This document shows positions 2,605 to 64,000 of a stretch of DNA of 64,000 nt, piece by piece. The position numbers and the translations under genes were made by a program. Every line of letters starts with the position of its first letter. Within the stretch, counting starts at the first letter, position 1. The notes under the pieces are model-generated. The model made no database searches. It was given only the letters and a program-made list of their open reading frames with translations, and was not told the DNA's origin. The DNA comes from Eledone cirrhosa (taxonomy: Eukaryota), in contig OZ024758.1 of NCBI GenBank assembly GCA_964016885.1, positions 30,876,001 through 30,940,000 on the forward strand. The letters are read 5' to 3'.

Positions 2605-3075
2605 CGGCGTTTCTAAGGAATTTTAATACTTGGCGGTCCTCACCCCTTCTCCATGTCTGAATACAGCAGATTTCTTCCAATGAAGAAAGGAAGTGAAAAA
2701 GAGATATAAAGGAAATATCGACCTCAGTACTAGGCTGGTTCTTTTTTTTTTATCGACCTCAAATGGATGAAAGGCAAAATTGACCTCGGTGGGATTTGAA
2801 CTCAGGGAGCAGAGAGTGGAAATAAATACCATAAAGCATTCTATCCGACGTTCTAATGACTGCCGATTTACCACCTGATATCTATGAATATCGGACAAAA
2901 CTCTTTGCTGGGTTTAATTGTGACTTTCTCCATTCTGAGTTCTAGTCCCGCCGAGATTAACTTTGCTCTTTATTCTTCCGGGGTCAATAAAAAAAAGCAC
3001 ACGTTAAGAAGTGAGATCAATATAATTGATTTTCTCCTTCCCCCAAATTACTGGTCTTGTGCCAGTGTTAGAAAT
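2605..3075. mobile_element. Two diverged tRNA-derived SINE copies in opposite orientations
   Basis: GATGAAAGGCAAAATTGACCTCGGTGGGATTTGAACTCAG at about 2767 (minus) and CTGAGTTCTAGTCCCGCCGAGATTAACTTTGC at about 2935 (plus). Confidence 0.7.
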
Positions 3076-20395: not shown

Positions 20396-20592
20396 TGGTG
20401 ATGAATTGGCAGTATCGGTAGAGGGTTGGACGCCATGCTTCCTAGCATAGTTACGTCCCTTTACAATCTGAGTTCAAATCCCGCCGAGGTTAACTTTGCC
20501 TTTCATCCTTACGGGGTCGATAAAATAAAGTACCAGTAATGTACTGGTTAATTGCTGGCCTTGTGCCTAAAGTAGAAACAATTATTATTATT
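20396..20592 (+). mobile_element. tRNA-derived SINE with (ATT)n tail
   Basis: A-box-like TGGCAGTATCGG, B-box-like GAGTTCAAATCC, tail GGCCTTGTGCCTAAAGTAGAAACAATTATT. Confidence 0.88.
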
Positions 20593-23500
20593 CTTTGAGT
20601 CTCAGTCATTGATGTTAGTTAACTGGAAAGTTTGTTGAAATGAATATCAAGCCACTATCTGCAGCCTCAGATATTCAGGACGTATCGGAGAGTTCTTGCT
20701 GTTCCCAGCAAGCATGCCTTTTGAAGTGTTCCAAAAAGCAGGGCGCGGCCAATTTTCTTTAACCATCCCTGGAAACTTTTTAAGATAGTACCTAGTGCGC
20801 CTATGACAATCGGGACCATTTTCACTTCATGGCAGTTCCAAATCCTTTTTACCTCCCACTTTAAGTCCTGGTATCGGTTAATTTTCTCCCTCTCCTTCTC
20901 TTGCACTCTCGTGTGGAATGGGCAGGCCACATCCACAACCAGGCACCGTCTTTTTTCCTTGTCCAAAACCACCAGTGTTCCAGTTTCTTGTCCGTCTGTA
21001 TCCTAAAATCCCACAGCACCTTCACCTGATAGTTTTCTATCACCGAATATGGCTTATGCTCATACCACTTCTCAGAATGTGGTAAATTTTTTACTTTGCA
21101 TAGATGCCAGTCGATCACCCTGCCCTTCACATAATGTCTCCAGCCTTTATAGTGAGTCTGGGCTAGGTGTCTACACTCGGATACAATGTGAGCCACAGTC
21201 TCCTCTCTTTCTCCACAGATCCTGCACAGTGGGCTAGCCTCCTCCTTGTAAATATGGTGTTTCAGTCACTTCGTTTTGAGGGCCTGCTCTTGCGCAGCCA
21301 TTAGCATTCCTTCTGTAGCCTTTTTAAGGTCTCCTCTTCTCAACCAGTTCCATGTCTGTGGATATCTAAATTCAGTTTTCTCAAAGAAGGTACTATGAAG
21401 GGACTTTTCATGAAGGTTGCTCTTTCTCCTCGTTGATATTTCCTCCTTGGACATCCCCTGGTCTACTGTCCTCTTCTTCAGTACAATTCTGAGCATTGGC
21501 TCCTTACTATCGGTCACGTATTTGTGTAGGTTGTTTTTCTCCATCTGAACACAGTCCTCTATGCTGATAAGACCTCTTCCACCTTCAGATCTCCTTAAGT
21601 AGAGTCTATCGACATCACTCCTCTTGTGGAACATGTTGTAGATAGTCAATAGTTTCCTAGTCTTCCTATCCATTTCTTTTTGTTCAGCAACATTCCATCT
21701 CAGAATTCCCGCACTGTACCTAAGAATAGACACAGCTCGGGAATTTACTGCACTTATGGCATTCCTACTGTTCAGATGTGACTTTAATACGCTCCTTATT
21801 CTCCGAATGTATTCATATCTTATCAATTCCTTCATTTTTTTGTTCTTGATGTCATCAGCCTCCAGAATACCCAAATACTTGTATCCTTCTTCAGTGTCAA
21901 TTTCCTTTATCATCTCACCTGTTGGTACCTGGATTCCGTTGCTTCTGCTCAATTTACCCCTCTTCATCACAAGGACTCCACACTTACTAATTAAAAATTG
22001 CATACATATATCATTGCTGAAAATACGGACACATCCAACTCCTTCTCGCTCTTCCCGAAGAGCTTAAGATCGTCCATGAAGAGGAGGTGATTGATGGTAA
22101 GCTCTCCCTTTCCCAACTTGTATCCTGCTCTCACTTTTCCCAGTATAATGGGCAAGGACAAACAACAGAGGGGACAGACTATCTCCCTGGAAGTTACCTC
22201 TCTTGATCTTCACGCCTCCCAAGGATTTTCCAGCTGATGTTAACTCTGTTTTCCAGGACTTCATACTTTTGCCCAACAACTGTCTGATGTTATCTGCCAC
22301 CTTGAAGATCTCTAGGCTTTTGGTGATCCAAGAATGAGGCACCATGTCAAATACCTTTTTGTAGTCTATCCATCCCATGGCAAGACCAGTGTGTCTCCTA
22401 TTGCAATTCCTCATTACCATCTTATCAATAAGTAACTGGTCCTTTGTACCACCGGACTTCTTTCGGCATCCTTTCTGTTCGTCCGGTAACAAGTTGTTTG
22501 TGTGGAGGTGATGGTAGATTTCCTCAGACACAATGCTTGTCAACAGTTTCCACATTACGGACAGACATGTGATAGGTCTATAGTTGGTAACATCATTACA
22601 CTTGATTCGGTCTTTCATTACCAGAACTGTTGTACCTTTTGTCAACCACTCTGGTACCTCACCTGACATCAAGCAGACATTGAACATGGTTGTCAGTTTC
22701 GGGTGGAGGGATGTTATATTTCTAATCCAATACCCCTGCACACCATCTGGGCCTGGTTATTTCCAGTTGGTTAGTTTTTTGGCCTGCCCCTTAAGAGTTT
22801 CAACTGTGATACTCAAATCAGTTTGTTGGTGTGCCTGTTCACTAATCTCCTTTTGTACTGTCTCAATCCACACTGCCTGGTCATTATGTTTAACATCCTG
22901 CTCCCATATTCCTCTCCAGAATGTCTTAGTTTGTTCCGCTTCAGGGATCAAATCGTTGCCTCTTTCTTTCTCTTCAAGCTGTCCAAACAACATCTTCTGG
23001 TTGTTTGCTTCAATGCGTTGCTTCAGTTCCTCTATGATAATATTTAGCTTTTTCCTCCTAGTTTTGTACTTTATTTCCAGTCTATTTTTAGTGGCCCATT
23101 CAGTAGGGACTCAAGCTTTCCAATGTCATTTCTCATTACTCTGATTTGACCATTCAGTTGTTTCTTCCACCAAGGTTCTGATCTTTCTTGTTTGTTGTTT
23201 CCTCTCGCTTTTATGCCAAGTAATTTCCTCACCGCATTTGCTGTTGCCTTGAGGATATTGTTGCACTGGTGAAGGCTCCTCGCCTCAAGGTATGGGATGA
23301 CTTTGTTTACCTTAGCTGTTGTTTCTTTTAACTTTTTCCTGTCTACAAATCTTAGGTTCATAGGTTTCCCACTATCATTGTTCAATTCATCTACCACTAA
23401 GTTTAGGATATCAACCAAATCTTGTCCTAGCCCGTCAGCATTCATCTCCTCAGTGGCCGTATCTCTGTTCCAGGTATTATTTATTTCAGCATTCAGATCA

Positions 23501-25881: not shown

Positions 25882-26080
25882 GGGCGGTGGATTAGCAGTA
25901 TCGGTAGAGCGTCGAACACTATGCTTCATAGCATATAATTACGGCCCTTTACGGTCTGAGTTCAAATCCCGCCAAGGTTAACTCTGCCTTTCATCCTTAC
26001 AGGGTCGATAAAATAAAGTACCAGTAATGTACTGGGTAATTGCTGGCCTTGTGCCTAAATTAGAAACAATTATTATTATT
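25882..26080 (+). mobile_element. Full-length tRNA-derived SINE
   Basis: GGGCGGTGGATTAGCAGTATCGG through TAGAAACAATTATTATT. Confidence 0.88.
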
Positions 26081-29610: not shown

Positions 29611-29640
29611 AAATATATAAATATATATATATATATATAT

Positions 29641-29695
29641 ATGTAAGTATGTATGTATACGTACATACATATATGTATACAGACGTACAGTAGCA

Positions 29696-29736
<41 letters not shown>

Positions 29737-30073
29737 GCATACAGGTACACATACATATATGCACGCATCAGTTTAGCCTACGTTTATTATAACGCCGGCC
29801 GCTTTGTTCGTTTGTTTGTCAACAAAGCGAACAGCCTGAATTTATGCCATACGGTGTTAAGGCAACCACGTCACCTTTTTGTTCAACACTGACACAGGAA
29901 CGATGTACTAGTTTCAAGCTTGTTAGCTATCATCAGCACCGTTTACCCATCTGCCAGATAGTTGAACGTTCGAAAGTATATACTTTCCTTATGAAAATTA
30001 ACGGCTGAGCAGCCTAATTTGCATACTGAGTGAGTTAAATCGGTCATTTTTTCGTTTTCATTTTTTTTCAACT
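29641..30073 (-). mobile_element. Retrozyme-like HHR element, family A (inverted part plus short plus-strand 3' stub)
   Basis: Reverse complement of 36410-36810; HHR at 29900-29942; (TA)n flanks. Confidence 0.75.
29900..29942 (-). ncRNA. Type I hammerhead ribozyme, family A
   Basis: ACGGTG-CTGATGA-TAGCT AACA AGCTT-GAAA-CTAG-TA-CATCGT. Confidence 0.85.
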
Positions 30074-30228
30074 ATATATATATATATATATATATATGCA
30101 AAAGTTCTATTTAAATTGTTGGGATACAACAAGCAAATATTTTTAGAGCTGCTATAAAGCACTCAACAATTATTTTGAGTAAACATACGATATTAACAAA
30201 TGGAAACTATATTTATAAAACCATATTT

Positions 30229-30291
30229 ATTTCATTATACATATTTCAAGGACACCAAGTTAAATTATGGTGTGCTATCATCAGACAAAAT
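30229..30291 (-). ncRNA. Type I hammerhead ribozyme, family C
   Basis: ATTTTGT-CTGATGA-TAGCACACCA..TGGTGTCCTT-GAAA-TATGTA-TA-ATGAAAT. Confidence 0.75.
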
Positions 30292-30412
30292 ATAATATAG
30301 ATCAGTTTTATAAATAAATATTGACATACTCCTTATCCGGGAGCTTCCAACAGTAATGGTTGCATCTTTTAAGGGTATGTCAATATTTATTTATAAAAGT
30401 GATCTATATTAT

Positions 30413-30475
30413 ATTTTGTCTGATGAAAGCACACCATAATTTAATTTGGTGTCCTTGAAATATGTATAATGAAAT
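30413..30475 (+). ncRNA. Type I hammerhead ribozyme, family C
   Basis: ATTTTGT-CTGATGA-AAGCACACCA..TGGTGTCCTT-GAAA-TATGTA-TA-ATGAAAT. Confidence 0.8.
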
Positions 30476-31934: not shown

Positions 31935-33720
31935 CAATGAAGGAGGGGGTGGAGCCGATCAAGCGTTGAAGGTGAATTCTATACAGCAAATTCTAAGGAA
32001 TGCGGAAGAAATTAGGCTAGCTAGAAAGCAGGCGAAAAAAGAATTCTGGAGGAATCTGAGAGTGGGAAGTTATAAAATTAAAAAGTTAATAAATAAAAAT
32101 TAAAAAGTTAAAAAATAATAAATAATAATAATAATAATATAAACAAATTAAATAATGAAAAATAAAAAAAAAACAGCTGCTATATTTTTAGCTGGTATTG
32201 CGTATTCGGCCAATGCTATATAGAATTTACTGGGGGGGGGGGGGGGTACTGAGACTACAAAAGCCCGAAGGGCTTACCCTCAGAGTAAGCGAAAGAGGAG
32301 AGAGAGTGGAAGGAAGTGAGAAGAAGAGATAAAAGGAACTGGGGTTTCCCCTATCTTGTTCGGCAAGTGGGGAAAAGAAGGATGTTACAGCCATTGTCTA
32401 CCCACCCGGGTCATGAGGGGGTTTGAGGGTGAGGTAAGTCCTATGCAATCAGTGTTTACATGCGGTTACAAGTTTGTCTTTTTTGTTTAGGAGTTGGTCC
32501 TTCGTAAACAGCATTTGTATTGTTCCTCCGAGCATAAGTTACACGGACGGCGTCCTCCCGTGTAGCATTTAGCCCTAGAAAGTAAGCTCCAAGTAAGATG
32601 GCATGTGATGTTATTATCTTGGAGGTCCCAGATGTGGCCCGAAAATGTAGTGGCATGTCACCGGGCTGGGTTTCTGAACGTATGTCGGTGTTGGTAGAGC
32701 CGGGTCTTAAAGTCACAGGCGGTTAATCCTATATAGGCTTTGTTGGAGTTTTCCGTCCTCACGTTGCATTGGTAGATCAAATTACGTTCTCGGCACATAT
32801 GTTGTTGAGGGGGCACATAGATCTATCAGGGCAGTTACACATCCTGGTCGGCTCTCCACTAATGTCTAGGTTGTTTCTTCCATAGGAGTTGAGCTTCTTG
32901 TTGTTTGAGGAGGCGATGTTTTGTGCGAAATTGGGTGTGGTGCTGTAGGAGAGTTTGATAGTGTTTTTGTTGATTATGTTGTGGTAGCGGTGTTGTGGTG
33001 GGAAGTGTTTTTCGAGAAGCCTAAAGTAGATTTTCCCGATTGGTGTTGCAACCTTGGCATTGTGGGGAGGGTTGAACCACATTACGTGACGTGAGCTGCA
33101 ACGTGGCCTGCTGGTTCCACTAAGGAACCTGGGTAAAAGGAGATTTCTTCCCGAAAGCTGCTTTGCTTGAGGGCCTGGTTGTAATAAGGCGCATGTTCAT
33201 CGAATATCTGGTCATTAGCGGACAAACGAGATATACGGAGGGAGATGTTTTTAACCAGGTTATTGGTGATATTTCTAAGATGGTTAGAGCGTTGGTGGAT
33301 GTAGTGAAGGTTGTCGTTTGGTGTCCTGTATAGGTAGTACAGATCATTTTCGAGGTTGAGGGTAACGTCCAGGAAATTGACTCGGGTTAGGGACGTGTGT
33401 AGGGTGATTTTAAATCCCCAGTCCTGGAAGAAGTTGATTAGGCCTTTACGGAACCGGTCCGTACTACTGGGGTTGTAGCCTTTGAGAGTAAGGAGTCAAT
33501 TGTCTCGGTACAATCCACCGCCGAATGCAGGAAACATTTCGGTGAGTTTATGTAGTAGGAATAATCCTATAAGATAGGTCACCTCCACTCTCAGATTCCT
33601 CCAGAATTCTTTTTTCGCCTGCTTTCTAGCTAGCCTAATTTCTTCCGCACTCCTTAGAATTTGCTGTATAGAATTCATTTTCAACGCTTGATCGGCTCCA
33701 CCCTCTCCTTCATTGTTCTA
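31931..33720 (-). mobile_element. 5'-truncated Penelope-like element (RT C-terminal half plus GIY-YIG) with inverted terminal copy
   Basis: GGLYRDN, VNFLDVTL, WFNPP, KHFP, CNC..CPL..C, LIYQCNV..AYIGLT, CNLC..CKH; 31931-32065 inverted at 33585-33720. Confidence 0.88.
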
Positions 33721-35876: not shown

Positions 35877-35940
<64 letters not shown>

Positions 35941-35943
<3 letters not shown>

Positions 35944-36866
35944 TATGCATGTATACGTACATACATATATGTATACAGACGTACAGTAGCATGCACATAT
36001 ATATATATATATACATATATACATACATATGCATACAGGTACACATACATATATGCACGTATCAGTTTAGCGGCGCTTATTATAACGTCGCTTTGTTCGT
36101 TTGTAAACAAACTGAACAGCCTGAATTTATGCCATACGGTGTTATGGCATAAATTCAGGCTGTTCAGTTTGTTTACAAACAAACAAAGCGACGTTAGCGC
36201 CGCTAAACTGATACGTGCATATATGTATGTGTACCTGTATGCATATGTATGTATATATGTATATATATATATATATGTGCATGCTACTGTACGTCTGTAT
36301 ACATATATGTATGTACGTATACATGCATATTTACATTTAAGTAAGTGCCATACTAAGAGTGAGAAATGAAATTTCGTTTTCATTTTGTTTCAATTTATCG
36401 TTTTCGGTATGCCTGACCGATTTAACTCACTCAATATGCAAATTAGGCTGCTCAGCCGTTAATTTTCATAAGGAAAGTATATACTTTCGAACGTTCAACT
36501 ATCTGGCAGATGGGTAAACGGTGCTGATGATAGCTAACAAGCTTGAAACTAGTACATCGTTCCTGTGTCAGTGTTGAACAAAAAGGTGACGTGGTTGCCT
36601 TAACACCGTATGGCATAAATTCAGGCTGTTCAGTTTGTTTACAAACGAACAAAGCGACGTTATAATAAGCGCCGCTAAACTGATACGTGCATATATGTAT
36701 GTGTACCTGTATGCATATGTATGTATATATGTATATATATATATATATATGTGCATGCTACTGTACGTCTGTATACATATATGTATGTACGTATACATGC
36801 ATACTTACATTTAAGTAAGTGCCATACTAAGAGTGAGAAATGAAATTTCGTTTTCATTTTGTTTCA

Positions 36867-36870
<4 letters not shown>
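35941..36870 (+). mobile_element. Retrozyme-like HHR element, family A: 1.5 tandem units of about 473 nt plus inverted 5' segment
   Basis: 36143-36396 repeated at 36609-36870; 35941-36136 inverted around 36137-36142; no ORF; (TA)n flanks. Confidence 0.8.
36518..36560 (+). ncRNA. Type I hammerhead ribozyme, family A (predicted cut after GUA, 36554)
   Basis: ACGGTG-CTGATGA-TAGCT AACA AGCTT-GAAA-CTAG-TA-CATCGT; stem I extends via CTGGCA/TGTCAG and GTTCAAC/GTTGAAC. Confidence 0.87.
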
Positions 36871-36904
<34 letters not shown>

Positions 36905-38172: not shown

Positions 38173-40973
38173 GATGTGTTTATTGAAAAAAACCAACAAA
38201 GATTTAATATAAAAGGTCTGTTTGGGATCAGGTTTTGAATTGACCAATCAAAACATAAGACTTATCTTTTTGATTGAAAAAAAATACTTTGGGGATGAAA
38301 AGAAGTCAAGCCAAAAAGATAGTGAAGGGTATACGAAATTTGATGTTATTAAAGACTAACTTTAACTCTAATCCTTCTATAAGGCTTATATGCCCTTCCA
38401 AGTCAGACATTAACATCATTAGTAAAACATTTTTTACATAGAATTATCCCACAATTAAGAAAACCCGTTAACTTACCACTCTGGGAAAACACATCACAAG
38501 TAATTAACTGGTTTACTAATATTAGAAATAAATCATCTGTTTCATTTCTACAATTCAATATAGATGCTTATTATCCCTCTATATCACCCATACTCCTGAA
38601 CAAAGCCTTGATATTTGCCAAAAATAGATCAGACTTAACTATGGATGACATTAATATTATCACGCACGCTAGACAAACACTACTGGAGTTTCAGAAGGAA
38701 TACTGGACCAGAAATACATATAGTAATATCTCTTCGACATAACTATGGGCTTTAGTGATTCCGCCCAAATTACCGATCTTGTTGCCTCTTTCTTCTATTT
38801 AACATTAATTCATCTTTTCCCCACCTTAAAGGTGGTTTATATCGTGATTACTGTGTTCTTCTTTCCACTAATTGAAATTAAAAGAAATTGAAAGAAATAA
38901 AAAACTTGTTAGAACTTTCCTCAAAGACTATTATAATCTCACTATTACATTTGAAAACACCAGTAAAATAGTTAATTTCCTAGATATAACTTTAGACTTA
39001 TCTACGGGTATCTACCAACCTTACCATAAACCTAACCAAAACTTACATTACATACACTCACAATCCAATCACCCTATATCTATCCTTAAAAACGTAGCAT
39101 ATAATATCTCACTCAGAATTTCTAACCTTTCATCTAACCAGGATGCATTCGATAAAAACGCACCCTTTTATAACGAAGCTTTAGCTAGAAGCGGCCACAA
39201 AAACAAATTAATCTACATACCTTGCACCAATAATACTTCAAACATTCAACCCAATATTACCAACAAAAACCAAATGAAAAACCCAGACATGAATGCCACT
39301 CATACTACACATAAAAATACCAACATAAAACTTAATTTCTCTACCTCTTCTCACATAAAATATAATAACTTTCAAAAAACCATTCATCCTAATACTCCAA
39401 TATACGTTAATAACATTATTAACAAAATTCCTAGTAATCAGACTAAAACACCTAAATCAGTTAATCTAACTAAACCTATATATAATAAAGTCACTAATAG
39501 TAACTCTCTTAGTAAACATCCTGATACATCGTATAAATATAAAAAACAGTAATAGACGGGTTACTTGGTATAATGCTCCATTTAATCTACAAATTAAAGA
39601 CAATATCCCTAAAAAATTCTTTGCTATCCTAGAGAAAAACTTCCCACCAAACCATAAATACCATCAAATTTTAAATAGATCAACTATCAAATTTTCCTAT
39701 TCCACTACCAAAAATATACAACAGAATATAAGTACGTATAACGCATATAAGTGTAAAAAACCCCACAAATATACCACCAACACATCAAACCAACCATAAT
39801 ACTAAAATAAACCGCAACAAACCACCATCTCCTTCATCTATAACAAGTCGAGTAAACTCCACACAAAATTTGACTAACTCCCCTGATATAATATTCACGA
39901 ATGGTTGTAACTTTAAAGGGAATTTGTCTTATTAATAACATAGTCTATACATGTAAAATTAGAACTAAGGACTCCACTTTAAAGTAAGATTTAACCCACA
40001 AACACAGTTTTAAAAATGCCGCATTAGCTAATAAAACATCCTTGGCTGAAACAATTAATAATTATAGAAAGAAGAATATCGATTACAACCTGACCTGGAG
40101 CGTGCTCAAAAGGGCCATCCCTTATCAAAATAGCAGATACGAGTGTAGGTTATGCTCCCAGGAACTTTTTGAAATCATGAAATCCAAGGATATCCTATTA
40201 AATAAGCGACAGGAATTAATTATATCTTGAAATCATAGAATTAGAAGAACCTTCAAATATTATAAACCTAATTAATATACACCTTACTCTTATATTGTAC
40301 AATTTATTATAATTGTTTTTTTTTAAATTTAGTTAACCTATAATTAGTATTTTACTACAGAGAACTTCATAATTTTATTTCCTCCTTACAGCTCTCTTTT
40401 CCTAAAATTAATACCTGTAAGCATACCTATACATTAATTTAATTTTCTGATATGTATCTAGATTCCTTGTAGTTTAAATAAGATTGATATTTCTCACTAC
40501 TACCCTTATCCCAAAATGTTACTTTCCTTCGTTTTTAAAAACACTCTTTAATAACATCTAATTCTTATTTATCACATTCATATGAATTAATATAACTTTA
40601 TCCCTATAAGTATACCTATCAATTAATTTAATTTCTTGTTATAGATCTAGATTCCTTGTGGTTTAAATAAGATTGGTATTTCTCACTAATACCCTTACCC
40701 TAAAATTTTATTTTCCTTCGTTTTTAATATTATTCTTTAATAACATCAAATTTTCGTGTACCCTTCACTATCTTCTTGGCTTGACTTCTTTTCATCCCCA
40801 AAGTATTCTTTTCCTTCAAAACATAAGTCTGCACTCCTCTACCCTTAAATTAAATGTCTACTACTGCTATTCTATCAACTTGACCTCTAACTTCTCTATT
40901 GGTCAATTCAAAACATGTTCCCAAACAGACCTTTTATATTAAATCTTTGTTGGTTTTTTTCAATAAACACATC

Positions 40974-45069: not shown

Positions 45070-45306
45070 TACCTTTCATCCTTACGGGGTCGATAAAATA
45101 AAGTACCAGTAATACACTGGGTAATTGCTGGCCTTGTGCCTAACGTAGAGACAATTATTATTTGACCGCAAAGAGTTACGGCCCTTGTCATTCTAAGTTA
45201 AAATCGCGCCGAGATTAACTTTGCCTTTCATCCTTACGGGGTCGATAAAATAAAGTACCAGTAGTGTACTGGGTAATTTGCCGGCCTTGTGCCAAAAGTA
45301 GAAACA

Positions 45307-45364
<58 letters not shown>

Positions 45365-45797
45365 GGGCGGTGGATTAGCAGTATCGGTAGAGTGTCGGAC
45401 AACTTGTTTTGCGGCATAGAGTTACGGCCCTTTACATGCTGAGTTCAAATCCCACCGATGTTAGCTTTGCCTTTCATCCTTACGGAGTCGATAAAATAAA
45501 GTAGCAGTAATGCACTGGGGTCGATTTAATCGACTTTACCCCTACCCCAAACATTATTGACCTTGTGCCTAAATCAGGAACCATCATTTTTATTATTATT
45601 ATTTCGTGTCTATATGCTTTGTGGCATAAAGTTACGGCCCTTTATGTCCTGAATTCAAATCCCACCGAGGTTAGCTTTGCCTTTCATCCTTACGGGGTCG
45701 ATAAAATAAAGTACCAGTCACGCACTGGGCTCGATTTAATCGACTATCCCCTCCCCCAAAATTACTGACCTTGTGCCTAGATCAGAAATCATTATTC
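45070..45797 (+). mobile_element. Four head-to-tail SINE copies or fragments with (ATT)n tails
   Basis: CTTTCATCCTTACGG(G/A)GTCGATAAAATAAAG four times. Confidence 0.85.
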
Positions 45798-46851
45798 CAT
45801 GCCTGTATCAACTCTTTCCATTATTTCTCAAATGATCCAAGTGACAGGAGGTTTAGGAATCTGGGATTGTTGTTTGTCAGACTAGAAAAAGTTTGGAAAA
45901 TTGAAAATAGTATGAGTACACTTCGCCAAAAATATCTGGCACAGATGCGACGAAAATACTTATGCTGTAACTCCTGTTTAGAGTGCAATGAATATAAAAT
46001 AAATAAATAAGAAAAACTACACTGTAGTAAATGCATATCCAAAACTACTTTAAATCTATTTAAACTTTCACAGACGAAAATAGCTGTCAGAAAACTATTG
46101 CTAATAATATAGACTTTCTTGATTGAGTCGATAAGGTGCGGAAAGAAAAAGACAAAGCTGTCACATGCATTGAGTTGTATTTGAATCTAGAATCAAAGTA
46201 GCCTCATCGACTTGCTAGAGACAGCAGCAAGAGAGAAATTAGAGAGAAATTAGAGAGAAATTAGGGTGACACTCACCCATTTAGAAATAGCAGCTATATT
46301 CAAATCACAACTTACTCACAACTTACTCTCTTATACAGGAGAGCACATACGTGCACGCACATTGGATAACATTGTCTTCGATATACTAAATTGTACTGAG
46401 TCAGGCCTCGGCTAAGCAACAACGTATTAGATAATGTTGCTCTAGATACATTATAGCAGAAGAAGAAAAAAGAATGGAGAAAGGAATGACAGAGGGTATA
46501 TGATAACATGCATGAGCTCGGCTGGTCTCAGTCGGATGAACTGGACATCCGCTGGAAAGTGTGTTTGAGGACTCTGCTCCCATGACCCTCCCAGGAGGAG
46601 GGCGAAGCGGAGAAGAAGAAGAAGCACGCATATTTGGTATGTTTTCCTGTTAGTTATGCATTTCCTTCTAGTTGTTTAGACGAAATATATATCTGTTGAG
46701 AACCTCAAAACGTTTCAAAAATCGGTTAAAGATAGTTATCATCTTTTTCATCAAACAGGGGAAACACGTATATATGGCATGTTTAGATCTCTATATACTA
46801 AACATATGTAAAATTATATTGACATTTATGCAATCTCCCGGTTACCTCTAT

Positions 46852-47193: not shown

Positions 47194-47200
<7 letters not shown>
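46932..47200. mobile_element. Family D short HHR element with one fold-back arm deleted
   Basis: Collinear with 56921-57345 but lacking the equivalent of about 57025-57175. Confidence 0.75.
47101..47165 (+). ncRNA. Type I hammerhead ribozyme, family D
   Basis: TATTTTAT-CTGATGA-AAACAAATATTA TTGA TGATATTTGTTTTT-GAAA-TGCGCA-TA-ATAAAATA. Confidence 0.75.
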
Positions 47201-47264
<64 letters not shown>

Positions 47265-47523
47265 GGAAAAAATGAAACGAAATTTCATTTCCCACTCTTA
47301 GTACGGCTGTTACTTAAATATAAGTATGTATACGTACATACATATATGTATACAGACATACAGTAGTATATATATATATATATACATGCACTCATAAATA
47401 TATGTACGTATGGATTCACCAAACATTTATTATAATGCTCGGTGTGTTTGTAAACAAACATCCCGTATTAAGCCGTAGTGTCCAGCAACCACCGTTGCTC
47501 GTTTCTTCAACACTGACAAAGCA

Positions 47524-47566
47524 ACACCGTACTAGTTTCAAGCTTGTTAGCTATCGTCAGCAACGT
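47524..47566 (-). ncRNA. Type I hammerhead ribozyme, family A2
   Basis: ACGTTG-CTGACGA-TAGCT AACA AGCTT-GAAA-CTAG-TA-CGGTGT. Confidence 0.82.
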
Positions 47567-48086
47567 ATACCTTCCTGCCAGATAGTTGAACGTCCGAAAG
47601 TATACACTTTCCTTATGCATATTAACGGCTGAGTAGCTCAATTTGCATATCGAGTGGGTTAATCGGCCGGGTGCACCGAAAACGATAAAAGGAAAAGAGT
47701 ACAGCGTTCCTTTGTCAGTGTTGAACAAACGAGCAACGGTGGTTGCTAGACACTACGGCTTAATACGGGATATTTGGTTACAAACACACGGAGCATTATA
47801 ATAAATGTTTGGTGAATCCATACGTACATATATATGTGTGCATGTATATATATATACATACTACTGTATGTCTGTATACATATATGTATGTACGTATAAA
47901 TACTTATATTTAAGTAACATCCGTACTAAGAGTGGGAAATGAAATTTCGTTTCATATTTTCCGTTTATCGTTTTCGGTGCACCCGGCCGATTAACCCACT
48001 CGATATGCAAATTGAGCTACTTAGCCGTTAATATGCATATGGAAAGTATATACTTTCGGACGTTCAACTATCTGGCAGGAAGGTAT

Positions 48087-48129
48087 ACGTTGCTGAAGAT
48101 AGCTAACACGCTTGAAACTAGTACGGTGT
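48087..48129 (+). ncRNA. Type I hammerhead ribozyme, family A2
   Basis: ACGTTG-CTGAAGA-TAGCTAACACGCTT-GAAA-CTAG-TA-CGGTGT. Confidence 0.78.
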
Positions 48130-48338
48130 TCCTTTGTCAGTGTTGAACAAACGAGCAACAATGGTTGCTAGACACTACGGCTTAATACGGGATGTTTGTT
48201 TACAAACACACCGAGCATTATAATAAATGTTTGGTGAATCCATACGTACATATATATATGTGTGCATGTATGTATATATATATATATATATACATACTAC
48301 TGTATGTCTGTATACATATATGTATGTACGTATACATA

Positions 48339-48403
<65 letters not shown>

Positions 48404-48408
<5 letters not shown>

Positions 48409-48507
48409 AACGAGTAGGATCCCGACGGCTGAGATCAAGCCGTTTCTAGTCCAAAATTGCCGTCGAAACGGCTTGAGCTCAGCCGTCGGGGTCCTACTCG
48501 TTCCTAT
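48404..48507. repeat. GC-rich hairpin with arms of about 43 bp at a TA junction
   Basis: ATAGGAACGAGTAGGATCCCGACGGCTGAG...CTCAGCCGTCGGGGTCCTACTCGTTCCTAT; right half also at 33881-33940. Confidence 0.85.
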
Positions 48508-48812: not shown

Positions 48813-49825
<1,013 letters not shown>

Positions 49826-52022: not shown

Positions 52023-52878
52023 CTAGCAGAAAAACCACCGTTTGGGTGGTTTCTCTGCTAGTATGTGTAGTGTGTATATTGATATTATATGCAAGTATAT
52101 ATACATGTAGATATGATACATCAAATAAAATTGTAATTGACAATATACACAGAAATTGAACGAAGACTGTTACACTGTCTTATGTAATCAGTAACGTAAT
52201 CCATGATACATTAAAAAAAGACGATATTATATATAAACTGCATTAGGAGAAAATTAGTGACAGAAAATTAGTATGTTTATTTAAGTGATCGCCACCGGAA
52301 GTGTTGACATCACACACTCTCTCTGTCTATAATGGTAGTTGAAGTGCTACTTTGAAAAGAAGTCAATTTTAAATTATTTATTTTTACGAAATTATTTTTG
52401 TTTACGAAATTTAGTAGATAAATTATGTAATATTCATTCATTATTTATTCAAAGTTAGGTGGATTGGCAGTATCGGTAGAGGGTCGGACGCCATGCTTTC
52501 CAGCATAGTTACGTCCCTTTACGATCTGAGTTCAAATCCCGCCGAGGTTGACTTTGCCTTTCATCCTTACAGGGTCGATAAAATAAAGTACCAGTAATGC
52601 ACTGGATAATTGCTGGCCTTGTGCCTAAAGTAGAAACAATTATTTATTCAAAGTTAACCTCGGCGGGATTCTGAGTTCAAATCCCGCCGAGGTTAACTTT
52701 GCCTTTCATCCTTACGGGGTCGATAAAATAAAGTACCAGTAATACACTGGTTAATTGCTGGCCGTGTGCCTAACGTAGAAACAATTATTTATTCAAAGTA
52801 ATCCAACTTATTTTACTAACGGGATAAAAAAAATAAACCGTACGCAGTCCCGCAGACCTTCCTTTATTATAGTTTAGA
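52023..52878 (-). mobile_element. Non-autonomous Helitron-like element with two nested SINE insertions
   Basis: Minus-strand A|TC start and CTAG|T end, terminal hairpin; homologous to 6283-8566; SINEs at 52458-52640 and 52671-52785. Confidence 0.7.
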
Positions 52879-56718: not shown

Positions 56719-56789
56719 TATTTTATTATGCGCATTTCAAAAACAAATATCATCATGGGATGATATTTGCGTTCTCATCAGATAAAATA
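56719..56789 (-). ncRNA. Type I hammerhead ribozyme, family D
   Basis: TATTTTAT-CTGATGA-GAACGCAAATATCATC CCAT GATGATATTTGTTTTT-GAAA-TGCGCA-TA-ATAAAATA. Confidence 0.82.
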
Positions 56790-56828
56790 GGGAGACATGA
56801 TATGAAGCTTAAAAAACACTTGCGAGCA

Positions 56829-56867
<39 letters not shown>

Positions 56868-56872
56868 CAGTT

Positions 56873-56924
<52 letters not shown>

Positions 56925-57045
56925 GGAGGTGAGTTTTATTGTAGTACAATAAAGCAATGCAGATATCGGATAAGAAGCACTCTACAGTTTGTGGGACTGG
57001 AGTATGCATAATATAAGATCAAAAGATGGTTAAAGGAGTTCAATA

Positions 57046-57116
57046 TATTTTATTATGCGCATTTCAAAAACAAACATCATCAAACAATAATATTTGTGTT
57101 TTCATCAGATAAAACA
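57046..57116 (-). ncRNA. Type I hammerhead ribozyme, family D
   Basis: Mirror of 57237-57307. Confidence 0.8.
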
Positions 57117-57236
57117 GGAGAACATGATATGAAGGCTAAAAAAACACTTGTTGATAGTGCAGTTTTAAATCAACATATGTTGATTTAAAACTGCACTATC
57201 AACAAGTGTTTTTTTAGCCTTCATATCATGTTCTCC

Positions 57237-57307
57237 TGTTTTATCTGATGAAAACACAAATATTATTGTTTGATGATGTTTGTTTTTGAAATGCGCATAA
57301 TAAAATA
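57237..57307 (+). ncRNA. Type I hammerhead ribozyme, family D
   Basis: TGTTTTAT-CTGATGA-AAACACAAATATTATT GTTT GATGATGTTTGTTTTT-GAAA-TGCGCA-TA-ATAAAATA. Confidence 0.8.
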
Positions 57308-59170: not shown

Positions 59171-59344
59171 AGTGGTGGATTGGCAGTATCGGTAGAGGGT
59201 CGGACGCCATGCTTTGACGGCCCTTGCCATTCTGAGTTCAAATCCCGCCGAGGTTAACTTTGCCTTTCATCTTACGGGGTCGATAAAATAAAGTACCAGT
59301 AATACACTGGTTAATTGCTTGCCTTGTGCCAAAAAGTAGAAACA
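59171..59344 (+). mobile_element. SINE with 17-bp target-site duplication
   Basis: ATTATCT(A/G)TAAAAGGCA at 59154-59170 and 59345-59361. Confidence 0.9.
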
Positions 59345-59530: not shown

Positions 59531-59994
59531 TTGATTACAGAGTCGGGCCAAATCGATGCAGATCGAACCTTCAGCTGATCAATCGTGAAATGCCTCACAC
59601 ATCAATAAATTTAATGAAGATCTAACACTTCGTCCATTTTATTATTAGTATTAAACTCTGCTTAGTACAACACCAACATACTTACTGTAAACTACGCATT
59701 GAGTGCTCACTCTGGTAAACCTACAGTAACTGGACGTTACAATCCCTATATATATATATATATATATATAAACAATTAAGTTAAAAATGTACATCCATAT
59801 ATGTATACTGAAATACTAGTATGCATATGAATACACACACGTATACATATGTAGATGTACCAAGTCTTTCACTGGTTACTTTACTGTGAGTATCCAGCTA
59901 TTCTGTATGTAAACACACAGACAAACCGGTTTTTAGAGTCATACTGGTTTTTGAGGAAACACCTTTCCTCTATTCTCCAGAAAGCCAGACAAGG

Positions 59995-60039
59995 AATATT
60001 GAACTAGTTTCGTTGCTGTTACAACTCATCAGCAATATT
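59995..60039 (-). ncRNA. Type I hammerhead ribozyme, family B
   Basis: AATATTG-CTGATGA-GTTG TAACAG CAAC-GAAA-CTAG-TT-CAATATT. Confidence 0.9.
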
Positions 60040-60643
60040 TACCTATCTACCGGCCTTTCTGGAGAATCGTAAAAGCACATATCGTTATATGCTTTTTCTA
60101 TGAAAATTAGTAGTGGGCAGACTAATTTGCATAGAATGTGAGTACGTACCGGTTCAACGGAGACGATAAAAACAAATAACGAAACGAAATTAAATTTCGT
60201 TTCGTTTGTAACTCACTTTTGTATGACTGACGCTTAAACAATTAAGTTAAAAATGTACATCCATATATGTATACTGAAATACTAGTATGCATATGAATAC
60301 ACACACGTATACATATGTAGATGTACCAAGTCTTTCACTGGTTACTTTACTGTGAGTATCCAGCTATTCTGTATGTAAACACACAGACAAACCGGTTTTT
60401 AGAGTCATACTGGTTTTTGAGGAAACACCTTTTTAACTTAATTGTTTAAGCGTCAGTCATACAAAAGTGAGTTACAAACGAAACGAAATTTAATTTCGTT
60501 TCGTTATTTGTTTTTATCGTCTCCGTTGAACCGGTACGTACTCACACTCTATGCAAATTAGTCTGCCCACTACTAATTTTCATAGAAAAAGCATATAACG
60601 ATATGTGCTTTTACGATTCTCCAGAAAGGCCGGTAGATAGGTA

Positions 60644-60688
60644 AATATTGCTGATGAGTTGTAACAACAACGAAACTAGTTCAATATT
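60644..60688 (+). ncRNA. Type I hammerhead ribozyme, family B (predicted cut after GUU, 60681)
   Basis: AATATTG-CTGATGA-GTTG TAACAA CAAC-GAAA-CTAG-TT-CAATATT; outer stem ATTCTCCAGAAA/TTTCTGGAGAAT. Confidence 0.9.
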
Positions 60689-61043
60689 CCTTGTCTGGCT
60701 TTCTGGAGAATAGAGGAAAGGTGTTTCCTCAAAAACCAGTATGACTCTAAAAACCGGTTTGTCTGTGTGTTTACATACAGAATAGCTGGATACTCACAGT
60801 AAAGTAACCAGTGAAAGACTTGGTACATCTACATATGTATACGTGTGTGTATTCATATGCATACTAGTATTTCAGTATACATATATGGATGTACATTTTT
60901 AACTTAATTGTTTAAGCATCAGTCATACAAAAGTGAGTTACAAGCGAAACGAAATTTAATTTCGTTTCGTTATTTGTTTTTATATATATATATATATATC
61001 GATAATATTAATAAATGGAAAATAACTTTATAAAACCATATTT

Positions 61044-61254: not shown

Positions 61255-61317
61255 ATTTCATTATACATATTTCAGGGATACTAAATTAAAATATGGTATG
61301 CCTTCATCAGACAAAAT
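61255..61317 (-). ncRNA. Type I hammerhead ribozyme, family C
   Basis: ATTTTGT-CTGATGA-AGGCATACCA..TAGTATCCCT-GAAA-TATGTA-TA-ATGAAAT. Confidence 0.75.
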
Positions 61318-61785
61318 ACAATATATAAACAGTTTTATAAATAATTTTGACGTACCCTATTAGAAGCGACCATTACTTTTGGAAGCTGTCTGGATAGTGA
61401 TATGTTTATAATTATTTTATTACTTGTAGTGTTAAGCACAGTTAGAAAAAAGACGGAGAGAAAAGAAAAACGGAGATAAAGAAGGAGAAAGAAAAAAGAA
61501 GGAGAGAGAGAAAAGGAAGATATATATAAAAATAGATAGGAGGAATTGAAAAAGAAAGAAACAAGAAAGGTTTTTATATATATCTTCCTTTTCTCTCTCT
61601 CCTTCTTTTTTCTTTCTCCTTCTTTATCTCCGTTTTTCTTTTCTCTCCGTCTTTTTTCTAACTGTGCTTAACACTTCAAGTAATAAAATAATTATAAACA
61701 TATCACTATCCAGACAGCTTCCAAAAGTAATGGTCGCTTCTAATAGGGTACGTCAAAATTATTTATAAAACTGTTTATATATTGT

Positions 61786-61848
61786 ATTTTGTCTGATGAA
61801 GGCATACCATATTTTAATTTGGTATCCCTGAAATATGTATAATGAAAT
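61786..61848 (+). ncRNA. Type I hammerhead ribozyme, family C
   Basis: ATTTTGT-CTGATGA-AGGCATACCA..TGGTATCCCT-GAAA-TATGTA-TA-ATGAAAT. Confidence 0.82.
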
Positions 61849-62477: not shown

Positions 62478-64000
62478 TACTTCTCTTAGGTCAGTGTTGT
62501 TTGTTTGGGTGTTGTTGTTATTCCATTCATTTTTTCTGTTTAGCCTTGGCCTTCCAAGTTCTATTTCGCTGGCCTCTCTGATTTGCCTATCTGCTGGGTC
62601 ATTTCTATGTTTAGATATTCTAATTTCTATGTTGTCTATGTTACCGTTGTGTTGTCTGGCATGTTCGTATAGTACTGAACCGTTTTTCGTCCTTTTAGCC
62701 CCCCCCCCCCCCCCCAGTGTTGGTCTATCCTTTCACCTATGCTACGAGCTGTCTCGCCTATGTATGTTGTCATGTTTCTGCAAGTACCCTCTGTACATCT
62801 TATGCTATAGACTACGTTTCTAGTTTTACAGTTTATCCGGGGGTTTACTCTACATATGATACATTTCCTATCAGTACAGTGGGTTTTCTTAAAAGGGTAG
62901 GTTTTGCTGATCAGGGATTTTTTGGTGGTTCCTGGCTTTTCTACCACCTTAATCTTTAAGTGGGTCTTGTCAGGGCCTTTCTACACTGGTTAGCTAATTT
63001 CCCTCCAGGGGTAGCGTCCACAAACATGACACTCTGGTATCTCTGGTTGTCGTATCATGATGTGGCCTTCCCTATCTTATGTCTAGCCCTATCTAAGCTA
63101 TTCCATGATTTGCTCCTGTATAATGGGAAAATTACTTTCATGTCCAGTTCTATGAGGTTCTTATATTTCTCCGTGGCTCCTTCGTATACTCTGATTCTGT
63201 CTCTTTGGTTGTAGCCAGAGAACTGCATGCGGTTGATGAAGTGTTGGATGTGTCTTTCCATTTCTGTTGGGTCGCACATGCGGGACACGTTCTTCATCAC
63301 TCGTACCAAGTCTGCGATTAGAATATTATACTTAGCACTACTGGACATTGCTGAGTTTTTGAGTATCAGGTATTTGGAGGCCATGGGTTTAGCATAGTGT
63401 GAGTGGAGAATTTGGGCTCTCTCGTCTATAGTGTTAATCCAGAGTTCCGTGTCTAATACAGGTAGTCTATTGTTAGGGGGTTTGGAAGGGTAGTCGATAG
63501 TTACAGTTATACTCTGGTGTATGGAATTAGCTATCTGCTGGATGCTTTCCATCGTGCTACGTTCTAAATCAAACTTGTTAGTGCTCTCTTGTGGGGATGT
63601 CCTTATTACTATATTGATGTCATCTACGTAGCGAGAGTACATGATGAGGTCTATGGAGCTTTCATCAAGGAGATCTTTGAGTCTCCTTTCCTACCATACC
63701 ATAAAAAGGTTGGCAACGTCACCAGCTATGCTGACGCCAATGGCTGCTCCCTCATTTTGGGTGTAGATCTTCTCGTTGAACTTGAATATGTGGCCCTTTA
63801 GGGTAGTTTTGAAACTAGCTCCTATTGCATGTGCGACCATTTTTCTTACCTGATCATTGTTTTGGGGGTCCGTATAGCTTTGGTCCACCCAATCCACCTT
63901 CACATGGGAGTCCTTTTTGCCATTCAGGATATGGGGGGGGGGGGGGTCTACCTCTTATGGGTCTACTGGGGCAAAAACGTCTAAAGTCATGGCTGTCTAG
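61980..64000 (-). mobile_element. Degenerate Penelope-like element (RT plus C-terminal GIY-YIG), runs off the window end; different lineage from the 32k and 38k copies
   Basis: FKFNEKIYTQNEGAAIG, RYVDDI, LPVLDTEL, HYAKPMAS, FSGYN, C..CIIC, VVYSIRC..YIGETARSIGERIDQH. Confidence 0.88.

Follow-up and report, generated by a model that had tools for sequence, protein, structure and literature searches.

Introduction

The metazoan non-LTR retrozymes described in the accessible text of PMC7229834 include those of corals, mussel units of 350-390 bp, axolotl units of 330 and 350 bp and newt satellite 2. The axolotl hammerheads have a one-pair palindromic stem III and a U.U at the base of stem II and cleave well only as dimers, and Penelope-like elements are named there as likely mobilisers of retrozymes. 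An inverted and tandem layout (Figure 2 legend), a one-sided tail of 30-40 bp and a microsatellite bias are given as typical of Penelope-like elements in PMC8557442, and consensus hammerhead families rich in compensatory changes have already been described in the available part of PMC4209133. A preprint (bioRxiv 10.64898/2026.07.22.740005) presents non-LTR retrozymes as non-autonomous derivatives of Penelope-like elements, with units of 51-972 bp and common monomers, and its available text reports that 8 of 9 tested dimers remained uncleaved in vitro.

We analysed a 64,000-nt window of the Eledone cirrhosa genome (contig OZ024758.1, positions 30,876,001 to 30,940,000). A first-pass annotation had described, at 47261-48342, a family of repeats (A2) that diverged from a sister family (A) and whose hammerhead varies mainly where hammerheads tolerate change, and it had suggested that ribozyme structure was selected, while allowing that the position 7 pattern of so few copies could be chance. 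By its sequence features A2 is an additional member of the non-LTR retrozymes, with a predicted dimer-type hammerhead, and the A2 locus is very likely one ageing insertion of a high-copy, non-coding, non-autonomous Penelope-type retrozyme of this group. The conclusion on selection was partly supported, since it holds for the families and not for the letters that had been cited.

Results

Anatomy of the A2 insertion

The A2 locus consists of three unit copies between two microsatellite flanks:

47196..47261, no strand, (TA)n microsatellite, left target flank
47261..47696, minus strand, inverted unit copy that starts ~8-10 nt upstream of the unit start, its ~60-nt tail abutting the left (TA)n
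47698..47968, plus strand, 5'-truncated direct copy that starts 4 nt ahead of the cleavage-equivalent site 47702
47969..48342, plus strand, direct copy from the unit start, without tail, stopping at the right (TA)n
48342..48406, no strand, (TA)n microsatellite, right target flank

The unit measured 422 nt between the cleavage-equivalent sites 47702 and 48124, which agrees with the ~422 nt annotated before. In the truncated direct copy the stem I 3' strand is CAGCGT, as in the family, and the copy ends in a tail (~47905-47968) with a hairpin, and the head-to-tail junction lies at 47968/47969. Junctions of this kind, free of any reading frame, were present in 3 of 4 loci. The same plan was found at three other loci of A, A2 or the third related family, B:

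35940-36872, family A
59770-60983, family B
~29630-30075, family A, in which the inverted part is merely the last ~28 nt of the tail

Altogether, the features of a Penelope-type insertion, namely an inverted 5'-truncated copy, a partial tandem, a tail at one end only and a microsatellite target with (TA)n on both sides of the inverted and direct parts, were shared by 4/4 related loci in the window.

Public sequencing runs were compared with 47900-48250, which yielded 7767 contigs from run X1, 44832 raw reads from X21, 18 records from X5 and 0 records from X4. These runs may come from a relative and not from the individual or species of the window (best share 0.54 of 37 words). The tail end of the unit ran into (TA)n in 39 contigs of X1. 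Among the joints listed out of 40 in the contigs and reads of this region, 11 of 15 connected opposite strands; the inversion joints listed had ends near the cleavage site (48101-48141) and others at 47993-48084 and 48197-48202. As no joint among those listed fell exactly at the cleavage site, 5' truncation at the ribozyme cut was rejected as a rule. If the template was a mixed dimer, the direct strand begins 4 nt away from where a sound hammerhead would be cleaved and continues through a crippled one, which could record an RNA cleaved at the former and left intact at the latter; we consider this reading unlikely because the joints listed were not exactly at the cut site.

The A2 unit has no frame of 120 aa except for microsatellite read-through, and no reverse transcriptase or GIY-YIG frame. 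Its G+C content is low (137 of the 351 bases compared, 47900-48250), so that it shares with non-LTR retrozyme units the non-coding nature, a length within ~150-450 bp, a GC below 50% and one type I hammerhead per unit. Head-to-tail junctions (A2, A and B) and a high copy number, with thousands of contigs and reads, were found as well. When the monomer was folded as a circle, the z-scores were -5.5 for A2 and -7.0 for A (60 shuffles), to which self-pairing (TA) runs contribute. The locus itself is an offspring copy: it holds one whole hammerhead per strand, and not the two consecutive whole units by which the preprint defines an active element.

The A2 hammerhead and its letters

Two type I hammerheads and an extended domain were delimited:

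48087..48129, plus strand, type I hammerhead: stem I 48087-48092/48124-48129, core 48093-48099 and 48114-48117, stem III palindrome 48117-48122
47524..47566, minus strand, type I hammerhead: core CTGACGA...GAAA, palindromic stem III, predicted cleavage after 47530, stem I locally weakened
48062..48148, plus strand, extended ribozyme domain: distal stem I helices with bulges around the hammerhead

The features of a type I hammerhead (core CUGANGA, GAAA, a UH at the three-way junction and an open stem I) were all present. The 6-bp stem I is lengthened by bulged helices, the 4-bp stem II has a U.U at its base, stem III is a single pair closing a palindromic tetraloop, and the cut is predicted after GUA. 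In the plus-strand hammerhead cleavage is predicted after 48123, with private changes at 48097 and 48109 and local changes at 48125 and 48127. A descriptor of this kind (cuganga/gaaa) appears in the methods of PMC8557442. The Rfam search of the whole window gave 0 matches at the gathering score, and the 150 of 346 matches listed at the E-value threshold included no hammerhead for A or A2; family B matched Hammerhead_HH9 (RF02275) with E-values of 3e-6 and 4e-5, below the gathering score.

Position 7 of the hammerhead core, in the residue numbering that we take to apply to these sequences, is free to vary. The letters annotated before were correct: the core reads CTGAAGA at 48093 (plus), CTGACGA at 47560 (minus) and CTGATGA in family A (36524 plus, 29936 minus), and stem I reads ACGGTG/CATCGT in A and ACGTTG/CGGTGT in both full A2 copies. 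The invariance attributed to GAAACTAGTA extended to 4/4 A and A2 copies, but the last letter is T in family B and in one loose end of run X5. Similarly, stem I was said to stay paired through G-U, which is formally true; however, according to the energy evaluation the CGGTGT strand creates three wobble pairs without a stable helix (+0.4 kcal/mol for the 6-bp helix, versus -5.2 with CAGCGT and -5.0 in family A), and the helix is absent from the RNAfold prediction. Both full A2 copies therefore lack a stable stem I, which is a property of these copies and not of the family. As for the claim that variation falls mainly where it is tolerated, the differences between the A and A2 families do avoid the core, whereas both full copies carry private changes that break pairs: in the plus copy 48109, which lies in stem II, and in the minus copy the equivalents of 48131 and 48148.

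Private and family variation

The read comparison separated the letters of the family from those of the insertion. In these data X1 contigs drop rare variants, X21 is a reduced-representation run, variants are unphased, reads of family A are mixed in, and the variant positions considered were the best 40 of 242 listed. At position 7 (48097), C accounted for 87.9% and T for 11.9% of X1 depth, and for 47% and 52% of X21 reads, respectively; any other letter, A included, reached at most 0.15% of X1 depth and 1.1% of X21 reads. In stem I, 48125 was A in 99.9% of X1 depth and 99.3% of X21 reads (G at most 0.07% and 0.75%), and 48127 was C in 98.8% and 96.4%, indicating that the stem I 3' strand of family A2 is CAGCGT, where A has CATCGT. 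Position 48109 was A in 99.4% of X1 depth and 98.7% of X21 reads. Common read variants also occurred at loop II (48107) and at a bulge (48069), and the letters for the equivalents of 48131 and 48148 in the minus copy were not among the 40 of 242 variant positions listed.

CGGTGT and the A at position 7 are thus local to the A2 insertion, and the latter is private to one copy. As evidence of selection, which they had been taken for, they largely fail, and both A2 copies belong to a single insertion and cannot be counted as independent. Within the 89-nt domain six local events were counted: three disrupt pairs, two reduce pairs to wobbles and one lies at position 7, a pattern that has the look of neutral decay. 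The two full copies differ at 10/282 sites; over 128 sites they show 5 differences between them, and 7 and 8 when compared to the partial copy. Besides CGGTGT, they have in common the minor letters at 48015 and 48232. Sequencing error was rejected as the source of CGGTGT because the strand is present in two copies of opposite orientation. That both full copies share CGGTGT and the partial copy does not may reflect a mixed-dimer template with both strands primed in its second unit, or conversion that homogenised the inverted arms.

Conservation of the ribozyme structure between families

Families A and A2 differ at 53/280 aligned sites when the microsatellite part is left out. Once the local changes were removed, 8/89 sites of the extended ribozyme differed:

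48079 and 48086, bulges
48097, position 7
48090 with 48126, pair changed from G.U to U.G
48080 with 48134, pair changed from U.G to A-U
48081, pair changed from G.U to A-U

None of these differences touched the core and stem III (0/15 positions) and no hammerhead pair was broken. When 8 changes were placed at random, the core was avoided and no pair broken with p 0.029-0.050 for 10 core-fixed pairs and p 0.001-0.005 for 23 pairs; these stricter sets replaced a hand-drawn 27-pair test (p 0.0002-0.003). As a blind control we took the structure that RNAfold itself gives for A, not a hammerhead, in which the same 8 differences broke 2/26 pairs. Core sparing alone was not significant, either for the 8 differences (p 0.21) or in the reads, in which the 15 sites of the core and stem III contained 0/29 common-variant positions (p 0.27; from 38 positions among the best 40 of 242 variants listed, 9 private ones had been removed beforehand). 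The ribozyme domain was less diverged than the rest of the unit (8/89 versus 41/191, Fisher p 0.011), and with the local changes kept the comparison gave 12/89 versus 41/191 (p 0.14).

Further comparison with family B showed that 186/301 positions are identical between A and B, yet B has retained every one of the 15 letters of the core and stem III. Across A, A2 and B, 7/19 pairs change on both sides and 94.7% of 95 cells are paired, as opposed to 35-54% in slid controls, a count that covers three lineages only and uses a structure drawn by hand with the sequences known. Specifically, two-sided change affected 3/6 pairs of stem I and 3/5 pairs of stem II among the three lineages, as expected of covarying stems. 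The first-pass annotation had proposed to compare core with flank mutation and to look for covariation; the second of these gave the two-sided changes, while core sparing by itself stayed at p ~0.21-0.27. Altogether, the unbroken pairs and the two-sided changes support purifying selection on the ribozyme structure during family divergence, whereas the letters originally cited for it are largely local decay. Few copies in one window cannot separate selection from decay.

Octamer and tail hairpin

An octamer lies upstream of the ribozyme in 6/6 full units of A, A2 and B:

48005..48012, plus strand, ATGCAAAT in the A2 direct copy, upstream of the ribozyme
47641..47648, minus strand, ATGCAAAT in the A2 inverted copy
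36436, 30024, 60551 and 60132, ATGCAAAT in the other units

The window contains 10 matches of it versus ~4 expected, and a TATA-like palindromic hairpin is located ~40 nt downstream of the octamer. Its sparing among the common variants listed gave p 0.50, and its identity between A and B p ~0.02, the latter post hoc. The snRNA-type promoter of newt satellite 2 includes an octamer, and the octamer of these families is a lead as a candidate promoter element. The newt promoter is treated in the available part of PMC2220036.

A hairpin was also observed inside the one-sided tail of all three families (47905-47968, 36808-36871 and 60915-60983). It is a possible recognition signal for reverse transcriptase.

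Other elements in the window

The window is AT-rich, with many (TA)n and other microsatellites. A descriptor scan found 14 type I hammerhead motifs of about five families, and broken coding remnants were located:

36524 plus and 29936 minus, hammerhead motifs of A
48093 plus and 47560 minus, hammerhead motifs of A2
60651 plus and 60032 minus, hammerhead motifs of B, to which two further groups are added
22064-22756, LINE remnant with RVT_1
62690-63690 (minus), 32480-33495 (minus) and 38872-39552 (plus), broken Penelope-like coding remnants recognised by eye

Family B (59770-60983) is a sister of A and A2 (56-62% identical) with the same inverted, tandem and tail layout. It has a G-C at the base of stem II and a GUU cleavage site, and its copies are near identical (332/334). 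From these sequence features, B appears to be the best candidate for an active ribozyme in the window. Two or three more hammerhead repeat families are at 30284-30420, 61310-61793, 47109, 56781-57245 and ~61093; their stem II is long and their stem III is a 6-nt palindrome, they often occur as inverted pairs next to (TA)n, and one has C at position 7.

The remnant at 62690-63690 has a CX4CX2C ahead of a GIY-YIG-like stretch, an arrangement that we take to be that of Neptune elements. Pfam gave no match for five Penelope-like pieces, and the Atlas returned HTH_animal on 39% of one cluster, a weak lead. By their sequence, these remnants are candidate mobilisers. Other repeats were observed in the window as well: near-perfect 100-nt hairpins adjoining (TA)n, either MITE-like or foldback inserts (48408-48505 and 49576-49673); a short GC-rich stretch ending in (GAA)n, possibly a LINE or SINE 3' end (46510-46625); and a SINE-like repeat ending in (ATT)n with at least 10 copies (2901-3047, 20402-20586, 25890-26074, 45127-45761, 52460-52789 and 59215-59289).

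Discussion

The findings presented here suggest the following cycle for the retrozyme that very likely gave rise to the A2 locus. Head-to-tail source copies would be transcribed, perhaps from an internal promoter with the octamer. With two hammerheads in one RNA, the palindromic stems III would pair and cuts after GUA would release 422-nt monomers, which may circularise. An autonomous Penelope-like reverse transcriptase/GIY-YIG enzyme would nick (TA)n, and copying of the RNA from two positions ~60 nt apart would produce an insert in which an inverted part stands head to head with tandem copies and a tail is present on one side only. Spread would continue only from sources whose ribozyme works, while the inserted copies decay at random, so that differences between families would respect the structure. 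The A2 locus is probably inactive, because with one whole hammerhead per strand it lacks a dimer partner, and also because stem I is weak.

Whether CGGTGT and an A or C at position 7 could instead be selected, tolerated variants of an active A2 lineage was considered. The strand and the minor letters 48015 and 48232 are common to both full copies, which would allow for a small source lineage; all six stem I positions are formally pairable, and A2 commonly has C at position 7 (88% of X1 depth). However, G at 48125 and A at position 7 are as rare in the runs as given above (at most 0.07% and 0.15% of X1 depth, and 0.75% and 1.1% of X21 reads), the helix is unfavourable (+0.4 kcal/mol), the change at 48127 is a CpG transition and CAGCGT is found in the insertion's own partial copy. 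This reading is very improbable, and for CGGTGT and the A at position 7 it is largely refuted. Amplification at the DNA level, as a foldback, MITE or satellite in which the hammerhead is an inherited passenger without selection, would fit a large inverted repeat in microsatellite-rich DNA and a core whose sparing between A and A2, taken by itself, is not significant. It would not predict variable 5' truncation combined with two fixed 3' ends, nor the two-sided changes in stems I and II, nor a less diverged ribozyme domain (p 0.011, or p 0.14 with the local changes kept), and we give it very little credence. The units might also be pseudo-LTR remnants of a 5'-truncated autonomous Penelope-like element and not an independent non-autonomous unit, given the identical layout, the Penelope-like remnants nearby and the fact that Penelope-like hammerheads are often single motifs or close opposite-strand pairs in the available text of PMC4209133. 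Yet at 3/4 loci the same short unit begins again directly after the tail, without an intervening coding body, and the hammerhead is of canonical size (6-bp stem I, 4-bp stem II) and not of the minimal type, which leaves this origin scarcely probable.

A non-autonomous Penelope-type retrozyme remains the preferred explanation for A2. The parts of a Penelope-like integration signature in A, A2 and B are two fixed 3' ends ~60 nt apart, head-to-head strands and a (TA)n target. We tentatively propose, at somewhat less than an even chance, that the A/A2/B superfamily combines the full signature with an octamer kept through ~40% divergence, as expected of an snRNA-type internal promoter. No autonomous element with the same 3' end was found in the window, in which the profile search returned only A, A2 and B units, and exact pattern scans of metagenome contigs and of viral contigs yielded 0 stretches each.

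That animal repeats contain conserved hammerheads with compensatory changes is already well documented, and the A2 letters initially flagged are mostly local decay. Through its anatomy, the A2 insertion connects a retrozyme family with Penelope-type integration, a connection that the available text of the preprint argues from co-occurrence and pLTR phylogeny, mainly in vertebrates. If the Penelope-like signature is read correctly, it would be anatomical evidence on who mobilises animal retrozymes, and the conserved octamer is a testable promoter candidate. In the literature covered, which leaves out most subscription papers, we found no published description of the A/A2/B family or of such elements in the octopus lineage.

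Compared to the non-LTR retrozymes in the accessible text of PMC7229834, A2 is similar in its non-coding, low-GC unit of a few hundred bases with one canonical type I hammerhead, high copy number, head-to-tail junctions and predicted self-paired circular fold. Its palindromic minimal stem III resembles that of HHR_Amex1 and the U.U at the base of stem II that of HHR_Amex2. It differs from the retrozymes described there in forming dispersed inserts of 1-2.5 units with an inverted part in (TA)n and not long arrays, and in unit length (422 nt in A2, 466 in A). With the Penelope-like elements, as far as they are presented in PMC4209133 and PMC8557442, A2 shares an inverted 5'-truncated copy beside tandem copies, a tail at one end and a microsatellite target, for which the Neptune clade is the Penelope-like comparison group, and the hammerheads of A2 and of Penelope-like pseudo-LTRs are both type I with a palindromic stem III. 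In contrast to the Penelope-like elements presented in these texts, A2 has no reading frame, a tail of ~60 nt instead of 30-40, and a hammerhead that is canonical and not minimal.
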